Positions 8,211 through 13,246 of a stretch of DNA of 64,000 nt are shown piece by piece; position 1 is the stretch's first letter, and each line of letters begins with the position of its first letter. The position numbers and the translations under genes are program-made. Origin of the DNA: Bacteroidales bacterium (GTDB lineage: Bacteria > Bacteroidota > Bacteroidia > Bacteroidales > F082). Under the pieces are notes generated by a model, which was not told the origin of the DNA, did no database searches, and saw nothing but the letters and a program-made list of their open reading frames with translations. The DNA lies in the NCBI GenBank assembly GCA_014860665.1, contig JACZJI010000048.1, forward strand, positions 2,418 through 66,417, in the 5' to 3' direction.

Positions 8211-9212
8211 TTATTTTGGATTTTCTAAAATATGCCGGCCCCAGTCTTTATAAACTTCGGGTTTCACATTGCTTTTCCAGTATCCGGTGGCCATGGCCAG
8301 ACTGGTAACTATGACAAAAACAGCCACAAGAATGCCTGCGTACAACCTCACCGGAACGGTTCTCTTCAACTGTTTTGTCAAGCTGAATCCCAGCGTGTTT
8401 TCTTCCGGGCAAATTGCCAGACATTCACCGCAGGCCATACATTCATCCGATTTGATTCGCAATTTTTCATGAATCTGTATGTGAGCCGGGCAAGCCTTAG
8501 TGCAACGCTGGCAGCTTGTGCAGGTATCAGGGTTCCGGGTCACTTTTAACGGGCTGAACATGCTTAAAAATCCAAGAAACGCACCATAAGGACATAGGTA
8601 GCGGCACCAGAAATTTCGTATGAAGACTGAAAGAATCACCAGTGCGAAAATCACAATAAGCGAAATCATGGAAATATGCCAAAAAAACATCAGCATTTCC
8701 ACATCAGCTATTTTGTTATAATTCCCATTGAGGAAAGATTGCAGTTCAACAGAAGACATTGCAACTATAACCCACAGAAAAAATATCAGCAGAAGATATT
8801 TCAGCGACCTTAAAGGATAATCCAACCATTTAGGGAGTATGAAATTTTTACCAACCACTTTCTTTCCCAACTTGCCAAGGTATTCAGACAAAAATCCAAC
8901 CGGGCAGATCCAGCCGCAGAATCCTTTCTTCATAAGAATGGCAAACAGGATGAAAACCGTCATCAGCACAATGCCTGCAGGATGAACCCTATTTAAGCTT
9001 CCAGTCAAAAGGAAATATTTAATTCCCATTAAAGAACTGATGGGCAAAAAGCCTTCGACGCCGGGTGGTCGATGGATAAAGGGAGTCTGGCCACCTGTCT
9101 GATAAAATCTTACGAAACCGTAAAACTGAAAGCCAATCCATAATATCAGTAACAGAAAACCAGACTGTACTAGTAACCTTATGTGCTGGTCTTTATTGAA
9201 CCAATTCTTCAT
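8211..9212 (-). CDS. Membrane 4Fe-4S polyferredoxin (NapH/MauN/YccM-like)
   Basis: Several TM helices, CxxxCP motifs (FCGWICPVG, FWCRYLCPYG) and two ferredoxin motifs (CTSCQRCTKACP, CMACGECLAICP). Confidence 0.9.
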   Translation of the reverse strand: MKNWFNKDQHIRLLVQSGFLLLILWIGFQFYGFVRFYQTGGQTPFIHRPPGVEGFLPISSLMGIKYFLLTGSLNRVHPAGIVLMTVFILFAILMKKGFCGWICPVGFLSEYLGKLGKKVVGKNFILPKWLDYPLRSLKYLLLIFFLWVIVAMSSVELQSFLNGNYNKIADVEMLMFFWHISMISLIVIFALVILSVFIRNFWCRYLCPYGAFLGFLSMFSPLKVTRNPDTCTSCQRCTKACPAHIQIHEKLRIKSDECMACGECLAICPEENTLGFSLTKQLKRTVPVRLYAGILVAVFVIVTSLAMATGYWKSNVKPEVYKDWGRHILENPK

Positions 9213-9261
9213 TTTCGATAATATTAAACTTGGCTTCCACTTTTAAAATCAGTTGATCTAA

Positions 9262-9317
9262 GAACAAGGATTAACGATTTAAGAACTTCCAAAATCAAAA
9301 ATCGTTAATCCTTGTTC
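9262..9317. repeat. Perfect 19-bp inverted repeat with an 18-nt spacer
   Basis: gaacaaggattaacgattt (9262-9280) pairs with aaatcgttaatccttgttc (9299-9317). Confidence 0.8.
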
Positions 9318-9382
9318 GGTGTTTAGGCTGCGACAGTCTTTTTTAAACCATCACGCTAAACTTAAGTTATTTCCCATCGTGT

Positions 9383-9934
9383 TTACAGATAGATTTCCCT
9401 AAGTTCCTTTAATAAATGATGATACTCTTCATGCTTTCCCAATCCAATTTTCTTTACTTCCAACTTCTCAAATTCATCAAATATTTGAGATTGTTCCGAT
9501 TCAGTAAGAACCTGATCTGCCATCATGAATAAGATATTATTTTCTTTTTCTATATGGTTTCGCAACAATTGAATGTAATTTTCGGATGCTGAAATAATCT
9601 TCTGGGCAGCGCCTTCCTCTTCATTTTCACAGGCAGTTAGCCCTTCAACCATTAATCGAATGAATCCTCTACCCTGCTCATGTTCATAAAGCATAACGCC
9701 AACGGGACCACCTTCATTAGGAATACCTCTCTTACCCAAAGCGGGAAAAAGGATTTCTTCTTCTTTACCGTGATGACACTTGTCGGCAAAGGTCTTAAGA
9801 AAATCGAAAATTTGCTTGAGGTGGGTCACATTAACAGGTTTGGAATCCTTAATATTTTTAACAATTTTTTCCAGGACAGAAAGTATTATCTTGATACCTT
9901 CATGTTCATCTCTTAGTTGCTGAGTTGCTTTCAT
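9383..9934 (-). CDS. Hemerythrin (HHE cation-binding) domain protein
   Basis: LRDEH, CHHGKEEEILFP, MLYEHEQGR and NHIEKENNILF form the di-iron His/Glu ligand pattern. Confidence 0.92.
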   Translation of the reverse strand: MKATQQLRDEHEGIKIILSVLEKIVKNIKDSKPVNVTHLKQIFDFLKTFADKCHHGKEEEILFPALGKRGIPNEGGPVGVMLYEHEQGRGFIRLMVEGLTACENEEEGAAQKIISASENYIQLLRNHIEKENNILFMMADQVLTESEQSQIFDEFEKLEVKKIGLGKHEEYHHLLKELREIYL

Positions 9935-9955
9935 TGCAATTTATATATAAATTTC

Positions 9956-12570: not shown

Positions 12571-12592
12571 ATTAATCAGTTTAAAAATTATA

Positions 12593-13210
12593 CTATTTCT
12601 TGTTATAGAGATTCTGTGAATTGTTTGAAGGATTTTTAATCAATGTTTTCAATGTGTGGAAGATGACCTTTCCCTTTTTTTGTAAATCGAAACTAAAACC
12701 CGAAAGGCCCCATTGATTTACGTTAAGCCGAATGCTTCCCAAGATGATAAAAGCAATCTGGTCGCTGGCAACATCGTTTCTGATCGCCCCTTCCTTTTGC
12801 CCTTCTTCAATGATCGTTGCAAAAGTTGAACGGGAGACTTTCATAATATCAAAGAGCTTGTCATACAGAATTTTATCATTCTTATACAAACCATCTGACA
12901 AGATTACCACAGCATAGGAAGGGGTATCAGCAAAGAACTTCAACTGACTATCAATTAGCTTCTCGATCTTTTCAAAGGGATCTATCTTTAAATCTTTCAC
13001 ACCATTAAAATTCGAGTCCATGATGGATTCGATATAATCCAGCAATGCACTTAGCACATCGGTTTTGCTTTTAAAATGCCTATACAGCGCTGACTCAACT
13101 ACCCCAATCTCAATAGAAAGGTTCTTAATGGTCAACGCCTGTATACCGCCCTCACCAATCAACTTGATGGCCGCATTAATAATTTCAGATTGTCGTTTAC
13201 TTAAATCCAT
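12593..13210 (-). CDS. TetR/AcrR family transcriptional regulator
   Basis: N-terminal HTH: RQSEIINAAIKLIGEGGIQALTIKNLSIEIGVVESALYRHFKSK. Confidence 0.95.
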   Translation of the reverse strand: MDLSKRQSEIINAAIKLIGEGGIQALTIKNLSIEIGVVESALYRHFKSKTDVLSALLDYIESIMDSNFNGVKDLKIDPFEKIEKLIDSQLKFFADTPSYAVVILSDGLYKNDKILYDKLFDIMKVSRSTFATIIEEGQKEGAIRNDVASDQIAFIILGSIRLNVNQWGLSGFSFDLQKKGKVIFHTLKTLIKNPSNNSQNLYNKK

Positions 13211-13221
13211 TTTTAATATGT

Positions 13222-13237
13222 GAGTGAATATTCACTC
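13222..13237. promoter_or_regulatory. Putative TetR operator (perfect 16-bp palindrome)
   Basis: gagtgaatattcactc lies 11 bp upstream of the TetR ATG and extends to 22 bp with one mismatched pair (tgt...gca). Confidence 0.8.
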
Positions 13238-13238
13238 G

Positions 13239-13246
13239 CAAAAATA
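13239..13246 (-). promoter_or_regulatory. -7 promoter element of the TetR-qNor operon
   Basis: The reverse strand reads TATTTTTG (TAnnTTTG), directly next to the palindrome. Confidence 0.6.

Follow-up and report, generated by a model that had tools for sequence, protein, structure and literature searches.

Introduction

In Neisseria, Moraxella and E. coli, the repressor NsrR, an Rrf2-family protein with a [4Fe-4S] cluster, controls norB/qNor and ytfE/dnrN. We describe here a locus from a Bacteroidales genome (positions 8211-13246 of a 64,000-nt stretch, referred to below as the window, on a contig that we label C97) that resembles the NsrR systems in several respects: it has a local repressor gene, a palindromic operator at the promoter of nitric oxide (NO) detoxification genes, and, as the targets, a nitric oxide reductase that depends on quinol (qNor) and a hemerythrin-like di-iron protein. 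It departs from them in that the regulator belongs to the TetR family rather than to Rrf2 and the operator sequence is unrelated; moreover, NO sensing is in this case something that we infer. Because it contains no cysteine, this TetR cannot hold an Fe-S cluster as NsrR does.

A second point of comparison is the norA-norB pair of Ralstonia eutropha, in which, as summarised in a review of RIC proteins, a quinol NO reductase is co-transcribed under NorR with a di-iron, hemerythrin-like NO-binding protein (PMC9268430, citing Strube et al. 2007). The pairing of qNor with a di-iron hemerythrin-like protein is common to both. In R. eutropha, however, NorA precedes norB and has the RIC architecture, whereas here a single-domain hemerythrin follows qNor; and NorR is a sigma54 activator with a non-haem iron GAF domain, whereas the present locus has neither a sigma54 promoter nor such an activator nearby.

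The regulator itself is most readily compared with the FadR/YsiA, KstR2 and AcrR/SmeT-type repressors, with which it shares a helix-turn-helix (HTH), a nine-helix fold (TM ~0.8 to FadR), a gene at the head of an operon and a palindrome that overlaps the promoter. Autoregulation, a habit of TetR regulators of efflux and lipid genes, is predicted here too, and the direct Bacteroidales relatives of this protein head operons for RND or MMPL exporters. The cargo, however, is an NO reductase and di-iron proteins instead of a pump or beta-oxidation genes, and the TetRs concerned form a clade that has its own invariant pocket residues and is often paired with a small cupin. HrtR of Lactococcus, a haem-sensing TetR repressor of a detoxification operon that binds haem through two histidines, is a conceivable model of metal-based sensing in the family, but the clade described here has no conserved histidine in its ligand domain.

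The regulators of ric/norA that the same 2022 review names are NsrR, DnrD, NorR, SrrAB, SarV, MgrA, SarA and FNR/Fur, and TetR is not mentioned there (PMC9268430). In full-text literature searches we came across no paper in which TetR controls nor or ric genes. To our knowledge, all known bacterial NO sensing relies on haem, Fe-S clusters, NorR-type non-haem iron or reactive thiols. We conclude that the components of the locus are of kinds already known, and that what is new is the probable recruitment of a TetR repressor-operator pair to an NO-defence operon.

Results

The ORF list and the sequence give five genes on the minus strand, in the order tetR, cupin, qNor, hemerythrin and NapH-like Fe-S membrane protein, separated by gaps of 22, 26, 21 and 170 bp; Pfam and NCBIfam profile searches supplied the domain assignments (Table 1). 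This cluster is real: the five co-directional genes, the short gaps among the first four and the canonical qNor ligands that had been reported in an earlier, sequence-only description of the window (the initial annotation) are all confirmed by the ORF list, the profiles and the alignment described below. The 170-bp gap after the hemerythrin gene folds strongly (-52.6 kcal/mol, z=-6.0 against shuffles) into hairpins that are probably a terminator or attenuator; the same gap is also occupied by hairpins, of different sequence, in the relatives L126, L127 and L135. Since the other gaps are too short for promoters and the hairpins follow hemerythrin, the core transcription unit is most likely tetR-cupin-qNor-hemerythrin, with the NapH-like gene reached at most by read-through. 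Thus the five-gene cluster of the initial annotation stands as a four-gene core, whereas the fifth gene, which lies beyond the hairpins and is retained only in the nearest relatives (L126, L127, L134 and L135), does not belong to it.

Upstream of tetR, the palindrome that adjoins the predicted -7 box is our candidate operator. It is a single-copy sequence in the 3.54-Mb genome at up to 1 mismatch, and all copies with 2 or 3 mismatches lie within genes or away from promoters; judged from these copies, we conclude that TetR would control a regulon of one operon. When 25 orthologous promoters of the clade are aligned, the operator core GTGAAyAyTCAC is found at a fixed position, with the same -33/-7 architecture and the same distance between promoter and operator. 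The sequence therefore provides what is expected of a TetR-family repressor, a palindromic operator at its own promoter, albeit as a predicted site.

Table 1. Genes and predicted regulatory features of the locus, in window coordinates
Feature	Position	Strand	Description
TetR-family repressor	13210..12593	-	205 aa; TetR_N HTH + TetR_C_4 (YsiA/FadR-like) ligand domain; 0 Cys
Small Cupin_2 protein	12570..12232	-	112 aa; Cupin_2 domain match
qNor/NorZ, quinol-dependent nitric oxide reductase	12205..9956	-	749 aa; PF22085 + PF00115
Single-domain hemerythrin-like di-iron protein	9934..9383	-	183 aa; PF01814, 2e-21
NapH/MauN-like membrane Fe-S protein	9212..8211	-	333 aa; 2 Fer4_5 + 4Fe-4S dicluster
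Predicted Bacteroidetes-type promoter	13239..13271	-	-33 TTTG (in atTTGcat) + -7 box TATTTTTG at 13246..13239
Candidate TetR operator	13222..13237	.	16-bp perfect palindrome GAGTGAATATTCACTC, directly after -7 box, 11 bp upstream of tetR ATG
Two stable hairpins in the 170-bp gap after hemerythrin	9262..9361	-	one with 19-bp stem, 9317..9262

The linkage between TetR and qNor recurs in other genomes. Among the GTDB species genomes that we scanned, 20 encode a TetR of 55% identity or higher; they are assigned to Lentimicrobiaceae, Candidatus Sulfidibacterium and unclassified Bacteroidales, and one of them is a metagenome-assembled genome of Rikenellaceae. In 15 of these 20 qNor lies directly downstream of TetR (counting L141, where the contig ends just inside qNor). 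The remaining five are of several kinds. L134:150-2814 (TetR 83% identical) has TetR-cupin-hemerythrin-NapH-like without qNor, in the same neighbourhood, with citrate lyase genes downstream, and L153 has TetR-cupin-hemerythrin. L149:1096-5819, also without qNor, has TetR-cupin followed by genes for DUF438-hemerythrin-PAS_10, DUF1858, RIC (ScdA_N + hemerythrin) and DUF6448 proteins. L136 shows TetR-cupin only, then a fragment of a NapH-like gene, and in L143 the contig edge comes directly after the cupin; together with L141, these two loci are not fully informative about the cargo. Wherever the downstream DNA is intact, the cargo of these TetRs is always NO-related (qNor-hemerythrin, hemerythrin alone, or DUF438-hemerythrin plus RIC) and never an exporter. 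Nine further loci from the same scan, with TetRs of 41% identity or less, lack qNor.

A large metagenomic protein collection gave a similar picture. It contains more than 120 TetR clusters at 59-90% identity, and all six orthologues that we looked up (61-90% identity) have the order TetR, optional cupin, then qNor-hemerythrin. Because the genes flanking these loci vary from one locus to the next, the TetR-qNor cassette appears to move as a unit. A maximum-likelihood tree groups the qNor-linked TetRs in a single clade (SH-aLRT 98), separate from those linked to efflux genes. The initial annotation had named a lack of conservation of TetR beside qNor as an outcome that would count against it; the synteny survey found the reverse. 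Conservation and specificity hold for the TetR linkage and for its operator alike.

More distant relatives of the regulator have other partners. In a sample of 301 genomes from the same order, we took up to 20 kb around every TetR homologue and grouped the neighbouring genes into clusters. TetR homologues occur in 59 of these genomes and are only 30-45% identical; they head RND (TolC-MFP-AcrB), MMPL-type exporter or NapH-like operons, and in most of them the -7 box is fused to an operator of the same type. The only order-level relative with a TetR-cupin-qNor arrangement is L012.

Some particulars of these loci are worth recording. Across L041-L095, which come from many Bacteroidales, TetR is often accompanied by a 112-aa cupin at the head of its RND, MMPL-type or NapH-like operon; the MMPL-type operons comprise a 765-aa transporter, a LolA-like and a porin-like protein; and the operators, mostly of the type (T/G)AGTGAATATTCACT or AGTTAGTGAATATTAACTAACT, are fused to the -7 box. 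L012:1-3125 (G232:C214) is the most distant TetR-cupin-qNor case (TetR 45% identical): an operator-like motif, AGTTAGTGTTCACT, lies between tetR and cupin and not upstream of tetR. In L130:6997-9259 and L145:6990-9236 the qNor frame is split into two or three pieces, which could be frameshifts or assembly errors.

The qNor protein consists of a NorB_cytochrome_c-like domain (PF22085, 5e-70, residues 36-216) and a COX1 domain (PF00115, 1e-62), and its alignment to the solved qNOR of Achromobacter xylosoxidans (6qq5, E=2e-248) spans the full length, as do those to 6fwf and 3ayf. Alignment to solved qNOR shows that the ligand motifs TWH(331)LQ, H(484)LWVEGFFEVF, TFH(535)H(536)LYF and VH(627)AH(629)T are kept, and the His/Glu motifs of haem b, haem b3 and FeB are all present. 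No CXXCH haem c motif occurs in the protein, which has two cysteines in total. It is thus built as a qNOR, with a single subunit in which an N-terminal cytochrome-c-like domain devoid of the haem c motif is fused to the NorB core.

The hemerythrin has its HHE motifs at H11, H54/H55-E58, H85 and H127-E130. It shows weak matches to the C-terminal domain of YtfE/RIC, but its only domain is PF01814: with the YtfE, RIC and DnrN models it reaches 27-33 bits, where the cut-offs are 205-300, and no ScdA_N domain was found with Pfam or NCBIfam. It is therefore not a member of the RIC/YtfE/NorA group; we call it hemerythrin-like, and it may work like a RIC. Homologues of it adjoin qNor in many relatives, whichever regulator is present.

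The cupin has candidate metal ligands at H45, D50 or E57 and H85, the last of which precedes C86. Both qNor-linked and efflux-linked cupins keep a plausible metal site of two histidines and one carboxylate, and the qNor-linked proteins have extra invariant histidines in the motif FHENxxVQAVH. Of 58 loci heading RND or MMPL operons, about 23 have a cupin homologue (40-58% identity) directly beside TetR. The cupin therefore appears to have been inherited jointly with TetR, the source being a TetR-cupin cassette found at the head of efflux operons in other loci; this pairing seems not to have been described before.

Discussion

We think it probable that the locus is an autoregulated operon controlled through its TetR-operator pair. 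One Bacteroidetes-type promoter would drive a single tetR-cupin-qNor-hemerythrin unit, and a TetR dimer bound to the 16-bp palindrome right after the -7 box would block all of it, tetR included, until some inducer, with NO or nitrosative stress as the likeliest, freed the promoter from the repressor. qNor would then reduce NO to N2O with membrane quinol, and the di-iron hemerythrin would bind NO or protect or repair iron centres, in the manner of the NorA and RIC proteins. TetR itself would take its signal from a small-molecule ligand or a metal-protein partner, for which the co-inherited cupin, where present, is the first candidate. In evolutionary terms, a TetR(-cupin) cassette that normally regulates RND/MMPL exporters in Bacteroidales would have been recruited once to NO-defence genes, taking the place that Rrf2/NsrR-type regulators hold at about half of the sampled relatives' qNor genes.

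Several observations weigh against this model, or against parts of it. The genes that travel with TetR are its sole link to NO; the presence of related operators and TetRs at efflux pumps suggests instead a sensor of hydrophobic ligands that need not report NO. The closest qNor-hemerythrin pairs (L097 and L098, 75% identical) have no TetR within 1.5 kb, so the pair does not need TetR. About one in four of the orthologous operons has no cupin. Finally, the genome has an NsrR-like, three-Cys Rrf2 protein elsewhere (C128:40576-40995, motif C-x6-C-x4-C).

The first of these objections leads to the most serious alternative, in which TetR is an ordinary sensor of hydrophobic ligands or acyl-CoA, and qNor-hemerythrin follows membrane, lipid or xenobiotic status, or a steady autoregulated level, rather than NO. 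Much about the protein is in keeping with such a role. That it belongs to the TetR family is clear: TetR_N (PF00440) matches residues 10-56 above the cut-off (7.5e-12), with the conserved motif YRHF, TetR_C_4 (PF08359) matches at 8e-10, and the AF2 model (pLDDT 89.8, ten helices) has the all-helical C-terminal ligand/dimerisation domain. The folds nearest to the model are Bacillus FadR, with and without stearoyl-CoA, KstR2 and SlmA (Foldseek TM 0.75-0.83), and a sequence search against solved structures agrees on an acyl-CoA-type fold, the closest proteins being the acyl-CoA-binding FadR/YsiA and KstR2. The wider family, as described above, heads RND/MMPL exporters under the same type of operator, and no NO-reactive residue is conserved in the clade. 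Set against this, the qNor-linked TetRs are a separate, supported clade with a pocket motif of their own, YAxVILSDGLYKN, in place of the LVxVIFSEEIFKN of their efflux-linked relatives. The clade-specific invariant residues (P97, Y99, A100, L104, S105, D106, G107, L108, Y109, K110, N111 and Q166) sit in helices 5-6 and 8, and Q89 and Q151 are nearly invariant. Furthermore, all of the cargo that was recovered is NO-related and none of it is an exporter, with the reservation already made for L136, L141 and L143. We therefore regard a plain hydrophobic-ligand sensor as unlikely, although it deserves to be taken seriously.

If the operon does respond to NO, as we favour, how might the signal be perceived? 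The initial annotation had pointed out that the regulator contains no cysteine; this is correct, and extends to the clade, of which 108 of 120 members are Cys-free and the other 12 have one Cys. The only histidines of the present protein are H45, in the HTH, and H185, and no ligand-domain histidine is conserved across the clade, some members having only the HTH one. We therefore rejected thiol, Fe-S and His-ligated, HrtR-like haem sensing by TetR for the clade as a whole. With no Cys, no conserved ligand-domain His and an acyl-CoA-type fold, TetR is probably not NO-reactive itself, and the remaining routes, a small-molecule ligand or a protein partner, seem more likely. Two of these are conceivable: an NO-bound Fe(II)-cupin might antagonise TetR, or the TetR pocket might bind a metabolite that is derived from NO or accumulates in its presence. 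The cupin cannot be an obligatory sensor as a general rule, since several orthologous operons lack it (among them L131-L133, L142, L146, L147 and L151); of the initial annotation's proposal that it acts as the sensor, what survives is its candidacy as a partner of TetR where it is present. The larger proposition, that this Cys-free clade, alone or with the cupin, is a true sensor of NO or nitrosative stress with a new chemistry and has replaced NsrR in this branch of the Bacteroidales, is a tentative one, towards which we lean rather less than away.

A further alternative accepts that the operon is NO-controlled, but assigns that control to a distal sensor of classical type, either the NsrR-like Rrf2 at C128 or a Crp/Fnr-type protein, leaving TetR as a second layer. 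Its plausibility comes from regulators encoded in the genome and from loci of relatives. Of the 301 order genomes, about 43 have a qNor orthologue of 60-75% identity, and we inspected the neighbours of the 29 closest loci. An Rrf2 gene stands next to qNor in 14 of them, and many also have a ~240-aa hemerythrin-domain protein; the only one with a TetR nearby is G288, where that TetR belongs to a downstream RND operon. This survey therefore depicts the qNor-hemerythrin pair as an older unit with a varying regulator, and the usual Rrf2/NsrR-type regulator appears to have been replaced here by TetR. The C128 Rrf2, which is 51% identical to the qNor-linked Rrf2 proteins of the relatives, lies beside a truncated haemoglobin gene; the genome encodes one more Rrf2 and six Crp-type regulators, and gives nine strong sigma54-activator matches, but C97 has none of these. 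Moreover, at L149 an Rrf2 gene is divergent to the orthologous TetR-cupin unit, which puts two types of regulator at one NO-stress locus, and in L012 TetR-cupin follows a gene for a 4Fe-4S protein, which other loci have between Rrf2 and qNor.

The promoter, however, offers little foothold for such a sensor. The Rrf2-linked qNor promoters of relatives share a candidate box, AAGGAyATAnAGGTCyTT (L104, L105, L106, L110, L114, L118 and L124), and a second type, GTATTCAAATAC, is found upstream of the Rrf2 genes in L108, L111 and L112. Neither occurs in the operon or in the 163-bp intergenic region that precedes it (13211-13373): a weight matrix built from seven sites upstream of relatives' qNor genes gave no match above 14 in the operon, and its best match in the genome (19.6) is inside a coding region. 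These boxes derive from relatives and may not be those of the host's Rrf2, but with no Rrf2 gene on C97 either, nothing places the operon in an NsrR regulon. The same is true of NorR: of the 13 PF00158 matches in the genome, which include the nine strong ones, none is on C97, and 13211-13373 contains no -24/-12 promoter (TGGCAC-N5-TTGC, within two mismatches). The region likewise has no HcpR-like box, and its sole Crp/Fnr-like match, with two mismatches, is a non-conserved one that overlaps the -33 element. Indeed, no second conserved motif is visible in the 25 aligned clade promoters. Of the 28 loci whose TetR is at least 55% identical, L149 is alone in having an Rrf2 gene within 6 kb; the other 27 have none. 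The initial annotation was thus right that no NorR-, NsrR- or Crp-type regulator is encoded in the window, and its statement holds for all of C97, on which there are no Rrf2, Crp-type HTH or sigma54-activator genes. We judge control by a distal classical sensor to be quite improbable.

The C128 locus (C128:40576-41423), which lies outside the window, has a layout of its own: the Rrf2 gene is in convergent orientation to the gene for the truncated haemoglobin (121 aa), and in divergent orientation to one for a 359-aa membrane protein. Together, the Rrf2 and the truncated haemoglobin may be a second NO-response locus of this genome.

That TetR might regulate only itself and the cupin, with qNor-hemerythrin transcribed from a promoter of its own, is very hard to credit: TetR-cupin pairs are indeed a mobile cassette found before many different cargos, and the G288 qNor lies just upstream of an unrelated TetR-cupin-RND unit, but the 26-bp cupin-qNor gap, similarly short in orthologues, leaves no room for a promoter, and loci whose TetRs range from 55% to 90% identity, in differing genomic contexts, all retain the order TetR, optional cupin, qNor.

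An autoregulated TetR-operator system would make sense in the setting of the genome as a whole. No hcp, nrfA or nirK was found in this genome, the estimated completeness of which is 99.65%, and a search for nirS gave only a weak propeller match. Because hcp, nrfA and nirK are missing, qNor is probably a stand-alone NO defence, and the gene content looks like that of a non-denitrifier that uses qNor against external NO. The presence of qNor in non-denitrifiers such as this one is relevant to the release of N2O from those sediments and reactors in which Lentimicrobiaceae-type bacteria are common.

More generally, a coherent TetR clade with a defined candidate operator, which numbers over 100 metagenomic protein clusters and occurs in no fewer than 20 species genomes, lacks the residues that the known NO-sensing chemistries need. 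If the clade does respond to NO, it would provide a new type of sensor and a compact repressor-operator pair. The locus would also be a case of regulator exchange in evolution, with a TetR-cupin cassette of efflux type at a qNor-hemerythrin unit where relatives often have Rrf2.

Other Features of the Locus

The fifth gene had been taken for a polyferredoxin in the initial annotation, an assignment that we revise: its product is a membrane Fe-S protein of NapH type, with about five hydrophobic, predicted membrane-spanning segments, two CX3CP motifs and two CX2CX2CX3C motifs. The profile scores are well short of the NapH cut-offs (TIGR02163, 105 bits against 213; NF007013, 93 against 234), and no nap genes are adjacent; we therefore describe the protein, from its sequence features, as NapH-like and not as NapH. 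The gene was considered as a core member of the operon and rejected as such, on account of the strong hairpins in the preceding gap and its restriction to the nearest relatives. In the model proposed above it would be a neighbour that is specific to the lineage, has a termination of its own and is loosely attached to the operon.

An Rfam scan of the region gave only a chance miRNA match (E=0.95). Next to the NapH-like gene, on the plus strand (window 7343-8209), is an ORF for a 288-aa multi-pass membrane protein with no Pfam or NCBIfam match; in the closest relatives, L126 and L127, this position is taken by a gene for a 63-aa Fer4_13 ferredoxin. At the other end of the locus, an inverted repeat, GAAAGC-N6-GCTTTC (window 13299-13316), lies between the divergent PIF1-helicase and tetR promoters, and L126 and L127 have inverted repeats of differing sequence at about the same place.

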